A DNA stretch of 5,661 bases from a virus (Duplodnaviria > Heunggongvirae > Uroviricota > Caudoviricetes), in the IMG/VR virus record IMGVR_UViG_2778261667_000016; one strand, 5' to 3'. Position 1 is the stretch's first letter. Every line of letters begins with the position of its first letter. Shown here one piece after another: positions 160 to 5,661 of this stretch. The translations under genes and the position numbers were made by a program. Below the pieces are notes generated by a model, which saw only the letters and a list, made by a program, of their open reading frames with translations, was not told the origin of the DNA and searched no databases.

Positions 160-200
160 AGCCGCAGTATTCTGCCACGACAAGTTGCTGCGGCTTTTTA
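160..200 (+). terminator. Candidate rho-independent terminator oriented for plus-strand (convergent) transcription
   Basis: Inverted repeat agccgcag(160-167)/ctgcggct(188-195) followed on the plus strand by ttttta(195-200). The 20-nt loop is large for a terminator, so confidence is modest. On the minus-strand transcript the same hairpin is not followed by a U-run. Confidence 0.4.
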
Positions 201-203
201 TGT

Positions 204-491
204 TTAACGGATAAACAGCCAGACCAGCAGACACGCCACCGCGGGCACCGCAAAATCCATCAGACTTGCCACATCCCATGCACGAGGATCAAAACCGCCC
301 CACCACGGCATGTTAATCCGCTTGCCATGCCCGAACATTTCAATCCAGCGATATTCTGCCTGGGTGTGTTCACGCGCAATGAAGAACGTACAACCGGCTA
401 TCGCCCCGTAAGCCCAGTTTCCGGTAAAAAGACCAATCAGTAGCTGCGCAGCCACAGCACAAAGTGCATGAAGGAAAGGTGTTATATCCAT
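204..491 (-). CDS. Hypothetical small integral membrane protein (about 95 aa, two predicted TM helices)
   Basis: ATG at 489-491 is preceded by AAAGGAGGAG (strong SD) and lies 13 nt downstream of the previous stop. The ORF-track start at 515 is a GTG that would overlap the upstream gene and is less likely. Hydrophobic segments FLHALCAVAAQLLIGLF/WAYGAIAGCTFFIA near the N-terminus and DFAVPAVACLLVWLFI at the C-terminus. Stop TAA at 204-206. I recognise no family. Confidence 0.6.
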   Translation of the reverse strand: MDITPFLHALCAVAAQLLIGLFTGNWAYGAIAGCTFFIAREHTQAEYRWIEMFGHGKRINMPWWGGFDPRAWDVASLMDFAVPAVACLLVWLFIR

Positions 492-504
492 TACTCCTCC
501 TTTA

Positions 505-1206
505 TCAGATATCACTTCGGGAAGTTGATAACAACTTTAATTCTGACTCAAGTTCATCAACTCTTTCAGTCAGTTTCTGGATATGGTGAATCAGTGGAAC
601 AACCAGACGTTCGTACATTACACCTTCGGCAACAAGGCCATTGCTGGAAATAGCTTCAGGAGCATCATCTTCGTTAGCTGGTCGCCAGTGTACAAACTGA
701 GGAGCAATTTCTCCCACTTCCTCGGCAATCAATCCGTAGAATCCCCAGTCACTCCTGTCATTTTCGCATTGCGACCTGTACCACACAGGGCGCATCCTGA
801 AAATGAGATCGGCGTGCTCTGAATCTATTGTCTCTACTGAATGTTTATAGCGAATAGACGATGTTGACCGCAGTACAGACGAAATTGCAGGGTCAGGATT
901 AAGATAAAGATTTGCCGCCGCTGTAGTCGTGCCCAATTCCCATAAATAAAACGCTTCACGGCCAGTCAGCGGGTAAAAATCTCCACCATAACGACCGCTT
1001 TCCAGATCGTTCACTTCCAGTTTGTTTTTCAGCTTATTATCAACTTCAGTTTTTGTGTATCTGGTGCTGATATCCTGCTTTGCACTGGTCATATCAGTCT
1101 GAAGCGTTGATACTTTTCCGTTAATTGAGGAAATATCTTCCTTAGTTTTACTGACATCTCCCTTTAGCGTGGTGATATCTCCTGGAATTACTGTCGATGT
1201 AGCCAT
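505..1206 (-). CDS. Small fiber-like protein (233 aa) with C-terminal intramolecular chaperone domain (peptidase S74 / chaperone-of-endosialidase type)
   Basis: ATG at 1204-1206 is preceded by GGGAGA (SD) 4 nt upstream. The N-terminal ~70 aa are a polar coiled-coil-like repeat (DITTLKGDVSKTKEDISSINGKVSTLQTDMTSAKQDISTRYTKTEVDNKL). Residues ~116-225 (nt 532-861) follow the intramolecular-chaperone pattern as I recall it: SSIRYKHSVETI (consensus S-D-x-R-x-K-x-N-I), LIFRMRPVWYR, GFYGLIAEEVGEIAPQFV (consensus G-F-I-A-Q-E-V), and YERLVVPLIHHIQKLTERVDELESEL (C-terminal helix). Stop TGA at 505-507. Confidence 0.75.
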   Translation of the reverse strand: MATSTVIPGDITTLKGDVSKTKEDISSINGKVSTLQTDMTSAKQDISTRYTKTEVDNKLKNKLEVNDLESGRYGGDFYPLTGREAFYLWELGTTTAAANLYLNPDPAISSVLRSTSSIRYKHSVETIDSEHADLIFRMRPVWYRSQCENDRSDWGFYGLIAEEVGEIAPQFVHWRPANEDDAPEAISSNGLVAEGVMYERLVVPLIHHIQKLTERVDELESELKLLSTSRSDI

Positions 1207-1215
1207 TTGTCTCCC

Positions 1216-1497
1216 TCACATCCAGCCACGAAGTTGATGCTCAACAACAACCGCGTATTTATCGAATATTGACGATTTTTTTGCATCATTAATGATGCGC
1301 ACGTTTACAAAATATCCGTCTTCCTTAACACATACCGGTTCGCCATCTTCAGTCAGTTCTCCGGTTTCTTTGTACACGTTACCTATCACGTCAATAAGAA
1401 TATTATCCTGCATCGACTCGTCATCATAATAGCCAGTGCTCTCCATAAAGGCCGAAAAGTCGGCCCTGTCTGCAAATTTGAGTGTTAAATCTTTCAT
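1216..1497 (-). CDS. Hypothetical small acidic protein (93 aa), translationally coupled to stf
   Basis: ATG at 1495-1497 overlaps the stf stop at 1497-1499 (TAATG on the coding strand). Stop TGA at 1216-1218, only 9 nt before the next gene. The product is acidic (many D/E), with no signal peptide or transmembrane segment. I recognise no family with confidence and it does not resemble lambda Tfa as I recall it. Confidence 0.6.
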   Translation of the reverse strand: MKDLTLKFADRADFSAFMESTGYYDDESMQDNILIDVIGNVYKETGELTEDGEPVCVKEDGYFVNVRIINDAKKSSIFDKYAVVVEHQLRGWM

Positions 1498-3878
1498 TAG
1501 ATTGACTCCCCCACCTGAGCATCAGTCAATGCCTTGTGCCATATTCTGAAATTCCTGACATGACCAAATAAATGACGTAACCCGGCAGTAGTCTGGCCTC
1601 CAATACGGATAATTGCGGTGTTCTGAATACAGGACCATGTGGTTTTTGTTTCGCTGGATATACGCCCGTTACTTACTGAGCACGTAGACTGATCTGACTT
1701 TACACGCATCCCCATAACCATTTTTTCAAGCGATGCGTTTTCGTTTACCCGTCTGTTAGCTCCTCCAATATCGCAATAAGGAAATCCGTCGTAATCTGTT
1801 GAACGACCGAAGCCAAGAATAATAGCCGCTCCGGTTTGATGACCGCCGGTGTCAAAAACACGCGGAGCTGCATTTGGCGTTTTATACCAGTTCTTATGTA
1901 CCTCACAAAGAACCGTAAAAGGAAGATTATAAAGATTATTCTTAATGGGAACTGTAACTATATCGCTTGCGCGGGTCGCCGCCGTCGTTCCTGATATAAT
2001 AAAAGATGATACACAAGGCCCATTTTCTACTTGTGGGGTGGCCAGATAAATATAGTCACCAGATACGGTTGCCCCGCCCTGCTTAGGAGAATACTGTATC
2101 TGAGAACCTATTTTTAACTCCCCATCAATTGCCTGAATTGTTGCCTCTGCAAAAATCCATCCGGTAGCTTCGTCCTTTCTGACTCTCGCAGTAATCCTTG
2201 AGGCAGCACCGCCTGTCATATTAATTTCAAGCGTTTGTGTATCAATATACGCATCACCAAGAAAAGTTGTTGCGCTACCGTCATATTTATCAAACCGGAT
2301 ACGCAACCTTACCTGCAGTTCTGTTTTAAAACGACATGAGGTTGTCACGTGTTTATTATCGCCTGAGACATCAACTGACTTTGTTGCAGCAATTGATGCC
2401 ATATTAATGGCTGAGGTTTGCCCAATCAGAGAATCGTTGCAGACAAACTTTCCATAGGTAAAACCAAAACTATCCGTCCCTGTTTCGGGCACATCCATAT
2501 TTGACGATCGCCCCCAACTGGCAGGGTTTTCCGAATTGAGCATGTAGTTTGTTCTTTGCCCCTCAATAAGCAGGCCATCACGTTCAAACCGTGGCTCGTC
2601 AATGGCAGCCTCTGTCAGCACACCAGATTTATTAATGTAAGTTGCTTTTGATGCGCGTTTAAACTTTACAACCTTATCGCCAGGCATCGTTATTTCATCA
2701 TCACCAATAACAATCTTTTTATATGACGGCGAAAAGCCCGTAATCATATCCAGTGAATCGTTAAACGGTATCCACACATCGGGAAGCGGCTGCAATACTT
2801 GTTTATACGGCTCCGCAGCCTGGCTTGCATACTCTCTGGCTGCGTCTTCACTTGCTTTTGCAGCCGTCTGGCTTGCAGCGGATGCTTTCGCCGAGTTAGC
2901 CGCCGCAGTCTCGCTCGCCTTTGCGTTGGTTTCACTGGTTTTTGCAGCTTTTTGACTGTTGGCTGATGCAGTGGCAAAAGCAGCCGCCGCGCTTGCAGAG
3001 CCAGCTGCAGCACTCTCGCTTTCGGCTGCTGCATCCTGACTGCTTTTCGCCGCAGTTTCACTGGCTTTGGCATTCGTTTCGCTGGTTTTCGCTGCCGTCT
3101 GGCTGGACTTTGCGTTGGTTTCGCTGGTTTTTGCAGCTTTTTGACTGTTGGCTGATGCAGTGGCAGAAGAAGCCGCCGCACTTGCAGAACCAGCTGCGGC
3201 ACTCTCGCTTTGGGCCGCTGCATCCTGGCTGTTTTTCGCCGCAGTTTCACTGGCTTTGGCATTCGTTTCGCTGGTTTTCGCTGCCGTCTGGCTGGACTTT
3301 GCGTTGGTTTCGCTCGTCTTTGCGGCTGTCTCGCTGTTTTTCGCATTGGTTTCTGATTTTTTGGCTGCTGTCGCGGAGTTTGCCGATGCAGTCTGTGAGG
3401 TCGCTGCCGCCTGTGCGCTGTTAGCTGCATTCGTTTCTGAGGTTTTCGCCGCGTTCTTCGATGATGCCGCTGCAGTTTCGGATTTCTTTGCCGCCGCTGC
3501 GCTCTGAGAGGCGGCTTCGGCGTTGCGTGCCGCTTCTTCCACCATTTCCTGAAAACGGCGCAATGCCTCCGGCATGACATCATCTTCCGTCATGGCACCG
3601 AGAAAATCATTCAGCGTCCCCGGACTGGAACCTTCATAGACGGTAATGGTCCCGGCATGTGAAGGCGGAAAACCTTCAACCAGCAGGGTGACGCTGTACT
3701 GGCCATACTCAACATCCATGCTGTAACGCCCGGCTTCATCCGGATTTTCAGAGGCCACTGTGTTGACCAGTACCGTGGTGCTGTTACGCTTTGCCTTCAG
3801 TTGAATAGTGCAGTTCTGTATTGGTTTTCCCGCACCATCTTTCAGCACACCTGAGATTTTTACTGCTGCCATATCCAC
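1497..3878 (-). CDS. stf: Side tail fiber protein, chimeric: lambda-Stf-like N-terminal anchor, Ala/Ser/Thr heptad-repeat shaft, non-lambda C-terminal putative lectin-like receptor-binding region
   Basis: 793-aa ORF. GGAG lies 7 nt upstream of ATG 3876-3878; an alternative ATG at 3870-3872 would give MAAVKISG. The first ~110 residues (AVKISGVLKDG.GKP.QNCTIQLKA.RNSTTV.VNTV.SENPDEAGRYSMDVEYGQYSV...GFPPSHAGTITVYE...PGTLNDFL.AMTEDD) match the N-terminus of lambda Stf as I recall it. Residues ~113-355 are AAKTSET-type heptads. The C-terminal ~440 aa contain segments such as EGQRTNYMLNSENPASW and a terminal LRHLFGHVRNFRIWHKALTDAQV that resemble concanavalin-A-like/LamG jelly-roll domains. Stop TAA at 1497-1499. 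Confidence 0.88.
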   Translation of the reverse strand: MDMAAVKISGVLKDGAGKPIQNCTIQLKAKRNSTTVLVNTVASENPDEAGRYSMDVEYGQYSVTLLVEGFPPSHAGTITVYEGSSPGTLNDFLGAMTEDDVMPEALRRFQEMVEEAARNAEAASQSAAAAKKSETAAASSKNAAKTSETNAANSAQAAATSQTASANSATAAKKSETNAKNSETAAKTSETNAKSSQTAAKTSETNAKASETAAKNSQDAAAQSESAAAGSASAAASSATASANSQKAAKTSETNAKSSQTAAKTSETNAKASETAAKSSQDAAAESESAAAGSASAAAAFATASANSQKAAKTSETNAKASETAAANSAKASAASQTAAKASEDAAREYASQAAEPYKQVLQPLPDVWIPFNDSLDMITGFSPSYKKIVIGDDEITMPGDKVVKFKRASKATYINKSGVLTEAAIDEPRFERDGLLIEGQRTNYMLNSENPASWGRSSNMDVPETGTDSFGFTYGKFVCNDSLIGQTSAINMASIAATKSVDVSGDNKHVTTSCRFKTELQVRLRIRFDKYDGSATTFLGDAYIDTQTLEINMTGGAASRITARVRKDEATGWIFAEATIQAIDGELKIGSQIQYSPKQGGATVSGDYIYLATPQVENGPCVSSFIISGTTAATRASDIVTVPIKNNLYNLPFTVLCEVHKNWYKTPNAAPRVFDTGGHQTGAAIILGFGRSTDYDGFPYCDIGGANRRVNENASLEKMVMGMRVKSDQSTCSVSNGRISSETKTTWSCIQNTAIIRIGGQTTAGLRHLFGHVRNFRIWHKALTDAQVGESI
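2814..3542. repeat. Array of degenerate 21-bp (heptad-coding) repeats inside stf
   Basis: Recurring DNA motifs (tttcgctggtttt, tttggcattcgtttc, gcagcttttt, etc.) with 21-bp periodicity. They translate in the stf frame to about 35 Ala/Ser/Thr-rich heptads (AAKTSET, NAKSSQT, NAKASET, AAAGSAS ...). Confidence 0.85.
2917..3326. repeat. Near-perfect 189-bp direct tandem duplication (about 2.1 copies) within the stf shaft repeats
   Basis: The string ggtttttgcagctttttgactgttggctgatgcagtggca occurs with gcagc at 2944 and again at 3133, an offset of 189 bp. The flanking sequence aligns over roughly 2917-3116 versus 3106-3315 with only scattered mismatches. At protein level stf residues 185-247 and 248-310 are 63-aa blocks differing at a handful of positions. 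Confidence 0.9.
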
Positions 3879-3936: not shown

Positions 3937-4536
3937 TCAGAATTTATAACCGACACCAACGATGAAACCGTCAGTGCGCCAGTCGCCACTGCCGGAACCT
4001 TCATAAGCAATATCAATGGCCACGGATTCGGTCGGGTTAAACTGCACGCCAGCCCCCCATGCCAGAGACGTGTCGCTGTGGCGACCGTCATCACTTCCGG
4101 TCAGCACATCGTGCGTTTTCCCCTTGTTGTCAGTTACGCGGATATAATCTCCGGAGAAAGTCGAAACACGGCTGTAAGCCATACCCGCCATCGCATACGC
4201 GCTGAACCATTCATTCACGCGCACAGACGGCCCCGCCATCACGCTGAACCAGCGGTTACGCACGGAATCTTCATGCCAGCGGGTATCGCTGTAATGGGTA
4301 AGCTGGCGATTCTTGTCTCCTGCATAGCTGAATGACGTCACCAGCCCCAGTGTGTCCGTAAACTCATAACGGTATTTCACGTTAATCCCGTTAAGATCAT
4401 CGCTGCCGGGAACGTTCGTCGAGGCATGAAGATACCCCGCGCTCAGCGTGGACTGATGTTCAGATGCCCATGCAGGCGCACCGGATACGGCCAGACAGAT
4501 GGCTGCGGAAAAAATGGCGGCATAAAGTTTACGCAT
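3937..4536 (-). CDS. lom: Lom/Ail/PagC/OmpX-family outer membrane beta-barrel protein (lambda Lom homolog)
   Basis: 199-aa ORF with ATG at 4534-4536 and SD-like GAGG 5 nt upstream. N-terminal signal peptide [25 protein letters not shown]-terminal segment [25 protein letters not shown] is the conserved last strand of lambda Lom and the Ail/Lom family, ending in the aromatic residue typical of outer-membrane barrels. Position between J and stf matches lambda. Confidence 0.92.
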
Positions 4537-4605: not shown

Positions 4606-5661
4606 TCAACGAATACTGATGCCGGAAGCGGCTTTTTTGGTCACAATCACCGTACAGTCGGTGATATTACCTGCCCACTGATTGCCTTTATGGAAAACCT
4701 TAAACTCCAGAGTGACGCTTCCCCTGCCACTCGGCATATCAATAACCGCACTGTAGCTACCGGGAATGGCCCCTTTAGTTTCTCTGGATGCGATTAATAC
4801 ACCGTTTTTGCGAACTTCAAAACCATAACCCGTGTATCTTGTACCTCCCGGGTTATTACCACTTCCCGGATCGCTATACGCTATTCCGTTAAAGATAATG
4901 GGCGGAATAATGATTTGACGGTCAAAGTTATGATCATCGCTGATGGTGACTGTAACCGTCCCGTTTGGTGTTTCCGTGTTACCCCACGTACCAGCCTGTT
5001 TCGGAAATGATTTGGATACAGCTTTAACGAAGTCACCTCTGACCTGAGTCGCCTCCAGCATGCCCTTAATCGTACAGTTCTGGTTAATCGTGACATTGTT
5101 GAGCGTTCCTGAGTTCGCATTCACACTACCACTGATATCCGCATTTTTAGCGGTCAGCTTTCCGTCTGATGTCAGGGAAAATACCGGAGGACTGCCACCG
5201 CTGGTAATGGTGGGGGCTGTCAGGCGCTTCAGGAACACGTCGTTCATGAATATCTGGTTGCCCTGCGCCACAAACATCGGCGTTTCATTCCCGTTTGCCG
5301 GGTCAATAAACGCGATACGGTTAGCGGCAACCAGAAACTGGCTCAGCTTGCCTTCCTCCGTGTCCTCCATGCTGAGGCCAATACCCGCGACATAATGTTT
5401 GCCGTCTTTGGTCTGCTCAATTTTGACGCCCCACATGGCATTCCATTTATCGTTAGCGTCCTTCCACTCTTTCGAAAACTCATCCAGTCTGCTGGCGTTA
5501 TCCTCCGTCAGATCAACTTTTTCCAGCAGCTCTTTACCGAGATGGGATTCGGTTATCTTGCCTTTGAAAAAATCCAGGTAACCTTCCGCATCATCGCTCG
5601 CCCGACCGACGGCCTCCACGAATGCCGATTTGCCAACGGTGTTCACACTGCGGATATAAAA
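4606..5661 (-). CDS. J: Host specificity / central tail fiber protein J, C-terminal part (partial; N-terminus lies beyond the window edge)
   Basis: Minus-strand reading frame stays open through position 5661, so the M at 5646 in the ORF track is an internal GTG codon, not the real start. Stop TGA at 4606-4608. Sits immediately upstream of lom and stf exactly as in the lambda gene order J-lom-stf, and the proximal part resembles the distal region of lambda gpJ as far as I recall it. Confidence 0.8.

Follow-up and report, generated by a model that had tools for sequence, protein, structure and literature searches.

Gene content of the window

The window analysed here is a stretch of 5,661 nucleotides from a tailed virus (Caudoviricetes, IMG/VR record IMGVR_UViG_2778261667_000016). 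It represents the distal end of a lambdoid tail operon, encoded on the minus strand in the order J (C-terminus), Lom, Stf, a 93-aa protein, an S74 fibre tip and a 95-aa open reading frame (ORF). An earlier reading made from the sequence only had placed this ORF at the 3' end of the tail-fibre operon, and it is indeed the last gene, beginning 13 nt after the stop codon of the S74 fibre-tip gene. The features are as follows.

4606-5646, minus strand: tail tip protein J, C-terminal part; the gene runs past the window
3937-4536, minus strand: Lom (Ail/Lom outer-membrane beta-barrel), a known cargo gene within the tail operon
1497-3878, minus strand: Stf side tail fibre, 793 aa, with phage_tail_N and GTA head-spike-fibre domains
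1216-1497, minus strand: 93-aa soluble protein of phrog_1361, a recurrent follower of lectin-type fibre genes
505-1206, minus strand: 233-aa fibre-tip protein with a Peptidase_S74 intramolecular chaperone, the usual upstream partner of the ORF in E. coli
492-504, minus strand: 13-nt spacer with the Shine-Dalgarno sequence (SD) AAGGAGGAG (494-502), coupling the ORF to the preceding gene
204-491, minus strand: the 95-aa ORF (ATG 489-491, TAA 204-206), a phrog_1443 member
160-206, plus strand: GC-rich hairpin with a 10-bp stem (160-169/186-195), then TTTTATGTTT; terminator-like on the plus strand only

The reading frame and its signals

The program-listed ORF comprises 95 codons and a stop codon and runs from 491 to 204. 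Both the ATG-started frame of 95 aa and its strong SD were confirmed; AAGGAGGAG lies 2 nt before the ATG, and the stop codon of the upstream gene occupies 505-507. The alternative GTG-started form of 103 aa would run into the upstream gene. Positions 204-503 are 100% identical to the end of a prophage in E. coli Rb-50, and comparison with E. coli homologs gave dN/dS values of 0.12-0.24, which indicates purifying selection. The ORF is a genuine selected gene and not a chance reading frame.

A consensus scan, which weak promoters could escape, revealed no sigma-70-like promoter on the coding strand within positions 1-1600, a range that includes 1.1 kb upstream of the ORF. DNA similarity among phages with unlike upstream genes starts at the SD, and at many loci of the family the start codon overlaps the preceding stop codon (overlaps of 0 to -4 nt). 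Therefore, the product is most likely made together with the receptor-binding protein (RBP) from the late operon. The same lack of a detected promoter and the conserved mobile unit beginning at the SD make expression in a lysogen doubtful, so that a role in classical lysogenic conversion, one of the two functions proposed from the sequence, is weakened.

The hairpin at 160-206 overlaps the stop codon of the ORF and was missed by the consensus scan because its loop of 16 nt is longer than 8 nt. As the U-tract is present on the plus strand only, this hairpin would halt converging transcription rather than the ORF's own transcript. The conserved 3' flank of the ORF gave no Rfam match.

Family membership and distribution

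The protein belongs to phrog_1443, a PHROGs family of unknown function (E=3.6e-57, residues 1-94 aligned with positions 1-94 of a profile of 97). This was the only match, as searches of the protein against Pfam, NCBIfam, PADLOC, PDB and fold collections returned nothing. The earlier statement that no known exclusion protein is recognisable is borne out, with no match in Pfam, NCBIfam, PADLOC or another PHROG. Homology to a holin or virion-component family, named beforehand as the outcome that would count against an exclusion function, was likewise not found. When 41 distant members were compared with Pfam, NCBIfam and PADLOC, nothing significant was obtained; matches to the N-terminal part of PhoR in 4 of these 41 members (best E=0.0035) were set aside as weak, reflecting a similar hairpin and a Trp-rich composition. 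The family is absent from the DefensePredictor supplements, and a literature search, which covered the name 'Ybl63' given to some members in UniProt and the RefSeq accessions, found no work on it.

Clustering of the homologs gave 566 clusters at 90% identity; at 50% identity there were 425, with members of about 90-130 aa throughout. These roughly 425 clusters span Alpha-, Beta- and Gammaproteobacteria and Desulfovibrio, with a near-invariant core (H8, RExxQAEYRWI, R58, W72, P83) common to all and about 60% identity across bacterial classes. Among 5,426 complete E. coli genomes, 1,882 (35%) carry the ORF, with a median of two copies and a maximum of six. In a neighbour-joining tree phage and chromosomal copies are intermixed, and E. 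coli copies from lambdoid, P22-like and phage-plasmid genomes group by host. To judge from this tree, the family appears to be host-adapted rather than adapted to the type of phage, and the gene passes between phages of the same host. The locus search was run with alignment A1; the distant alignment A2 was too diverse for that use.

Predicted structure and topology

The AlphaFold2 model, calculated from an alignment of 28 sequences, contains three helices (residues 4-23, 26-53 and 74-94) at a pLDDT of 92.7. The description of the product as a two-helix membrane protein therefore stands in part: the hydropathy profile does show two hydrophobic regions, yet three helices are predicted, and the supposed two hydrophobic helices correspond to an N-terminal helical hairpin, broken at G24-N25, and a C-terminal helix. 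The elements of the protein map to the window as follows.

423-482, minus strand: helix 1, residues 4-23, transmembrane, with the near-invariant H8 and a G20xxxG24 motif
333-416, minus strand: helix 2, residues 26-53, with a short transmembrane part (26-39) followed by an amphipathic juxtamembrane helix
276-374, minus strand: conserved core, residues 40-72, RExTQAEYRWI...G.GKR.NMPWWGGFD.R.W, on the predicted cytoplasmic face
210-272, minus strand: helix 3, residues 74-94, transmembrane, with a D79-P83-C87 stripe

The amphipathic part of helix 2 bears R40 E41 x x Q44 A45 E46 Y47 R48 W49 I50. The Trp/Gly-rich loop noticed earlier, MPWWGGFDPRAWD, is present and ranks among the most conserved segments of the family. 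Across 133 members, non-redundant at 70% identity, H8, R40, E41, Q44, A45, E46, R58, W72 and P83 are near-invariant, followed by R48, D79 and Y47; both cysteines and H42 are not kept family-wide. Residues 29-72 are nearly identical among the copies from E. coli, Salmonella, Aeromonas and Comamonas.

The mean number of Lys and Arg residues in 215 members is 5.4 in the loop between the second and third transmembrane helices, 0.07 in the turn between the first and second, and 0.77 in the C-terminal tail. By the positive-inside rule this bias predicts an N-in/C-out orientation with a cytoplasmic conserved loop. The product is thus, by prediction, an integral inner-membrane protein (three hydrophobic helices, high-confidence model) whose conserved polar residues all lie, like the conserved loop, on the cytoplasmic side, where H8, RExxQAEYRWI, R58, W72 and D79 are predicted to form a small juxtamembrane module. 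Predicted exposure to the periplasm is almost nil, being limited to a turn of 3 residues and a short tail. The protein has neither a signal peptide nor a lipobox: there is no positively charged N-region, and the cysteine that Leu precedes, C11, is unconserved. Two members of 140-142 aa (P0146 and P0198) have a polar, acidic insert of about 45 residues between RWIExFG and NMPWWGGFD, which fits a water-exposed loop that tolerates a soluble insert. The other longer members, inspected as candidate natural fusions, proved to be mis-called starts or frameshifts, and only this loop insertion was informative.

The size of about 95 aa and the three transmembrane helices resemble those of class I holins, and a holin-like protein or lysis regulator has to be considered, although we regard this as very improbable. 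The P1-like element has lydA/lydB-like neighbours, and 1 of the 41 distant members gave a weak match to Phage_holin_8 (E=0.0036), which is not significant after multiple testing. Unlike class I holins, the protein has a highly conserved loop of 34 residues and a C-terminal tail of only 1-8 residues that carries no notable charge, both of which are atypical for holins. Moreover, no endolysin gene is adjacent in the window or in most other contexts, and copies of the gene exist at housekeeping chromosomal loci.

Genomic context of the family

In all phage contexts examined, the gene adjoins an RBP gene or the small accessory gene of an RBP, and it is nearly always placed directly downstream of the RBP gene in the same orientation. 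The homolog-context search found this adjacency in at least ten unrelated phage architectures, which strongly reinforces the positional argument on which the sequence-only reading was built. Adjacency to RBP genes holds across unrelated virion types. It supports an accessory role tied to host recognition or the envelope; it could also be hitch-hiking with the most frequently exchanged phage module.

Lambdoid prophages and phages carry the gene behind two different S74 fibre tips or behind a 92-aa follower gene alone. The closest IMG/VR copies follow one of the two S74 fibre-tip types in 79 of 80 cases, with gaps of 9-45 nt, and the same protein (about 95% identical) stands behind both tips. 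In the family at large, the protein remains about 60-95% identical while the adjoining RBPs differ completely. The 108-kb phage-plasmid PhiR41_1 has the gene beside a receptor-binding gene; the PhiR phages appear to derive from the temperate-phage panel whose reference is said to be Brenes and Laub 2025. The gene overlaps the tailspike stop codon and precedes int in the P22-like podovirus JEP4, lies between the fibre and downstream tail genes in HP1/P2-like myovirus prophages of Aeromonas salmonicida and Leclercia, and is found after tfa and before the sheath gene in Halomonas phiHAP-1. A Citrobacter lambdoid prophage shows the order J, pectate-lyase tailspike, family gene, and in a Salmonella multi-tailspike prophage the gene is sandwiched between two tailspike genes. 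It follows J in Comamonas and stands by an S74 tailspike in Desulfovibrio and by a ConA-like lectin fibre in Chelativorans; in the latter and in one metagenomic contig it even intervenes between the RBP gene and the small follower gene belonging to that RBP. The proposal that the genes downstream of the Comamonas copy form a lysis cassette found no support. An intact copy is located just upstream of a beta-helix tailspike gene in the virulent Aeromonas jumbo phage ACP1. In two DGR prophages the gene stands between the variable-repeat gene and bAvd/RT, and the VR/TR pair was verified; in a P1-like element it adjoins the fibre genes.

The two DGR loci (L037 and L039, 4785-8051) are BPP-1-like: a target gene of about 375 aa carries a 119-nt VR at its 3' end, and a TR, about 90% identical, lies between bAvd and the reverse transcriptase; L037 has a second avd-like repeat at 8087-8166. 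In the P1-like element (L085, 7398-8164) the gene has the fibre genes on one side and, on the other, a 104-aa ORF and then LydB and DarA; it thus stands where the fibre and lyd/dar operons meet.

The virulent phages HC6 and KFSST3 retain only decayed fragments of the family gene, behind intact S74 tailspike genes. These remnants are unannotated and frameshifted or truncated (L090 3965-4159 in HC6; L091 3980-4105 in Kuttervirus KFSST3), and their presence suggests that the RBP modules were acquired from temperate phages. Decay behind intact tailspikes indicates that the gene travels with RBP modules and is dispensable for RBP function.

These data bear directly on the possibility that the product is a lytic-cycle helper tied to RBP production, i.e. 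a late membrane protein handling the RBP or its environment. Such a protein could, for example, ensure that receptor precursors, assembled on the cytoplasmic side of the inner membrane, do not titrate freshly synthesized glycan-binding RBPs, or it could assist RBP maturation or localization. The co-oriented and tightly or translationally coupled arrangement (many loci show overlaps of 0 to -4 nt), the lack of a detected promoter of its own, the prevalence of glycan-type partners (pectate-lyase tailspikes, ConA-like lectin fibres and S74 fibres), and the predicted orientation of the conserved module towards the cytoplasm, where RBPs fold, are all consistent with it. The arrangement also recalls the Tfa/Caudo_TAP and gp38 chaperones, which lie directly downstream of the fibre gene in the same orientation, often with overlapping stop and start codons. 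However, Tfa and gp38 are soluble and matched to their own fibre tip, whereas the product studied here is predicted to be membrane-embedded and keeps its sequence whatever the RBP. A helper is further opposed by the decay of the gene behind functional tailspikes in HC6 and KFSST3, by a protein about 95% identical following two fibre tips and the occurrence of the family behind unrelated RBP folds, and by chromosomal copies without any phage genes. Lambda itself and many close relatives of the carrier phages, which are not known to carry the family gene, also count against it. On balance a helper seems distinctly unlikely. A role as a fibre-assembly chaperone in particular is weakened by the pseudogenes behind working tailspikes, the two fibre-tip types and the phage-free chromosomal copies.

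In other E. coli prophages a truncated 3' fragment of tfa follows the small gene at a distance of about 20 nt (L092 4846-4965; L093 4847-4966 and 3801-3974), which indicates that a cassette composed of a self-chaperoned S74 fibre tip and the small gene replaced an ancestral fibre tip and tfa. No such relic was found behind the ORF in the window. In Lambda_4C10 and E. coli GTEN_23, the manganese/iron transporter operon sitABCD lies on the opposite strand just past the small gene (L003 1444-4893; L092 1184-4633), with the short tfa relic intervening in L092. The small gene thus marks the boundary between tail operon and cargo at these loci.

Chromosomal copies

Copies of the gene exist at fixed chromosomal loci. 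Aeromonas species share a common locus with Pirin, the family gene and a convergent RIO kinase (RIO1) gene and with no phage genes, Leclercia species have a separate fixed locus between an M3 oligopeptidase gene and an ABC-transporter operon, and sphingomonad copies are flanked by ligA, FtsZ, ThiC and similar housekeeping genes. A link to LPS through the Aeromonas neighbour was considered and rejected, as this neighbour is a true RIO kinase and not a Kdo/WaaP kinase, and no conserved glycan-pathway neighbours were found at the chromosomal loci. The stability of these copies suggests a housekeeping function, one that may have nothing to do with phages.

The chromosomal copies raise the question of whether the gene is host-fitness cargo unrelated to infection, comparable to Lom and Bor, i.e. 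a cellular inner-membrane protein that benefits lysogen physiology. Its place behind RBP genes would then result only from this junction being the most recombinogenic and most widely exchanged in tailed-phage genomes. Lom, which also derives from a cellular family, lies inside the same tail operon 3.4 kb away, and in Aeromonas and Leclercia cellular copies are maintained at fixed loci. In many cases the next feature after the gene is the provirus boundary or cargo such as sitABCD, the tfa 3' relic behind it in some prophages points to cassette replacement, and the remnants in virulent phages resemble passengers of acquired RBP modules. On the other hand, the gene is found not only at operon ends; it is also nested between two tailspikes, between fibre and downstream tail genes, between a DGR target and avd, and between a fibre and its own follower. 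Virulent jumbo phages, moreover, carry it intact. Both Lom and Bor are located in the outer membrane and have promoters of their own. The ORF differs from them, as from typical lysogen-expressed cargo, in lacking a detected promoter, in being coupled to an RBP gene, and in standing behind RBP genes in many non-lambdoid phages. We consider the cargo explanation unlikely, though less so than the other rivals.

Discussion

The family to which the ORF belongs is uncharacterized and very widespread, and it differs from known RBP-adjacent genes in fold, predicted location, conservation and breadth. Small accessory genes beside RBP genes (cor, llp, gtr, oac) are the classical source of exclusion and serotype-conversion functions. 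The same genomic position as that of the family gene is occupied by cor, gtrABC/oac and P2 Z/fun. Known genes of this kind are all lineage- or receptor-specific, whereas the present family is a single, highly conserved one carried by many phage types.

The sequence-only reading had drawn its analogy with Cor (phi80, N15, HK022 and T1-like phages) and T5 Llp, which are likewise encoded by small genes beside receptor-binding or tail-fibre genes and have an accessory function connected with host recognition, a function that position alone suggests for the ORF product. Both Cor and Llp have FhuA at the outer membrane as their target, and Llp is a lipoprotein. The ORF product, by contrast, is predicted to be an integral inner-membrane protein whose conserved part is cytoplasmic, and it has no sequence similarity to them or to other known families. 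With neither a signal peptide nor a lipobox, almost nothing predicted in the periplasm, and a sequence that does not track the RBP, masking of the phage's own outer-membrane receptor is hardly credible, in spite of a genomic position identical to that of cor.

The ORF product may act in exclusion at the inner membrane. P22 SieA, HK97 gp15 and T4 Imm are small phage-encoded integral inner-membrane proteins, as the ORF product is predicted to be. SieA, an inner-membrane exclusion protein, is predicted to have three transmembrane domains, and the SieA types are less than 30% identical, diverge fast and are specific to one type of DNA-delivery conduit (PMC10883804). SieA, gp15 and Imm are prophage-expressed, conduit-specific, rapidly diverging and not homologous to the ORF family, whereas the family is found with all three tail morphologies and on chromosomes, is about 60% identical and has no detected promoter of its own. 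Since such exclusion proteins are conduit-specific and fast-evolving, classical blocking of injection is weakened as an explanation, and carriage of the family unchanged by sipho-, myo- and podoviruses argues against specificity for the phage's own type. The Tai tail-assembly-interference genes were also considered and rejected, as they lie upstream of the packaging module and do not encode membrane proteins.

Receptor-conversion modules sit in the interval between tailspike and int in P22-like phages. The JEP4 gene lies in the same interval as P22 gtrABC, Sf6 oac and the epsilon15 polymerase inhibitor, and the RBP partners of the family are mostly glycan-directed. In contrast to the receptor-conversion genes, the ORF encodes a single 95-aa protein with no recognizable enzymatic domain, and the 41 distant members gave no Pfam match to GtrA, GtrB, GtrC or acyltransferase_3 domains even at E<=1. 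Under another explanation the protein would be a minimal membrane enzyme or a module for ligand binding. Its target would be a universal lipid-linked intermediate of the envelope, e.g. undecaprenyl-phosphate-linked glycans, and the protein would thereby remodel surface polysaccharide receptors whatever their chemistry. The clustering of near-invariant polar residues (H8, R40, E41, Q44, E46, R58, D79, with W72) at one membrane interface, the extreme conservation across bacterial classes, the glycan-directed partners and the JEP4 copy in the place of gtrABC/oac are in line with this explanation. DgkA is a small interfacial enzyme of comparable size and layout, which is an analogy only. No sequence or fold similarity to any enzyme was found, though, and the conserved residues could be purely structural. 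Moreover, H42 and both cysteines are not conserved family-wide, and the chromosomal loci offer no conserved glycan-pathway neighbours, with a RIO kinase rather than an LPS kinase in Aeromonas. Such a module is therefore improbable in our estimation.

The reading that we prefer, to which we assign a probability of about 0.35, is that the product is an accessory inner-membrane protein, co-expressed with the RBP, which acts on a conserved component of the proteobacterial host and alters the handling of phage by the envelope. Accordingly worded in steps, a three-helix inner-membrane family native to proteobacterial chromosomes would have been taken up repeatedly by phages as an accessory gene at the 3' end of RBP genes. 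Its product may be made together with the RBP by translational coupling, from no promoter of its own, and would be dispensable for RBP assembly. From the inner membrane it would target a conserved host component that Alpha- to Gammaproteobacteria have in common, not the specific outer-membrane receptor, and might thus alter the way in which the envelope of infected cells or lysogens responds to phage, a function of the exclusion or conversion type. The ORF product is a good, though unproven, candidate for a function at the phage-host envelope interface.

A bolder version can be formulated, which we regard as a long shot. In this version, phages of every tail type would have captured a minimal enzyme or ligand-binding module of the membrane interface, about 95 aa long and universal in Proteobacteria, and would keep it welded to their RBP genes since it would reprogram either an inner-membrane entry factor or a conserved lipid-linked pathway of the envelope. 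If this were true, the family would serve as a general 'host-range cassette partner', governing phage entry or the display of receptors whatever the receptor chemistry.

The family has no Pfam entry, although about one in three complete E. coli genomes carries it, often more than once. Should it influence phage susceptibility or surface structures, it would be among the commonest prophage-borne modifiers in enterobacteria. It would then bear on host-range prediction for phage therapy and on RBP engineering, because swapped RBP cassettes may carry the family gene along, and it would also provide a function for the chromosomal relatives in Aeromonas, Leclercia and sphingomonads.

Other observations on the fibre genes

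The 93-aa protein encoded upstream of the S74 fibre tip belongs to phrog_1361, a family of small soluble proteins behind lectin- or GTA-spike-type fibre genes, with followers of this kind found in phages of E. coli, Comamonas, Pantoea and Chelativorans and in a P1-like one of Leclercia. The copy in the window is 27% identical to the P1-like copy (E=6e-12); copies outside the window lie at L085 4994-5278 and 6601-6888, L015 5714-6001 and L036 6168-6587. The phrog_1361 protein probably serves the fibre as a dedicated accessory factor or chaperone. Its gene accompanies that of the membrane protein, on one side or the other, in at least 12 loci.

In Stf, residues 437-637 match the NCBIfam model 'GTA head spike fiber' (E=7.6e-14), after the prophage tail-fibre N-terminal domain. 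The stf gene also contains, at 2901-3327, a tandem repeat of 189 nt in 2.3 copies with 92% matches and nested periodicities of 42 and 21 nt. It encodes Ala/Ser/Thr/Lys-rich shaft repeats (...AAKTSETNAKSSQTAAKTSETNAKASETAA...) and is likely a site of length variation.
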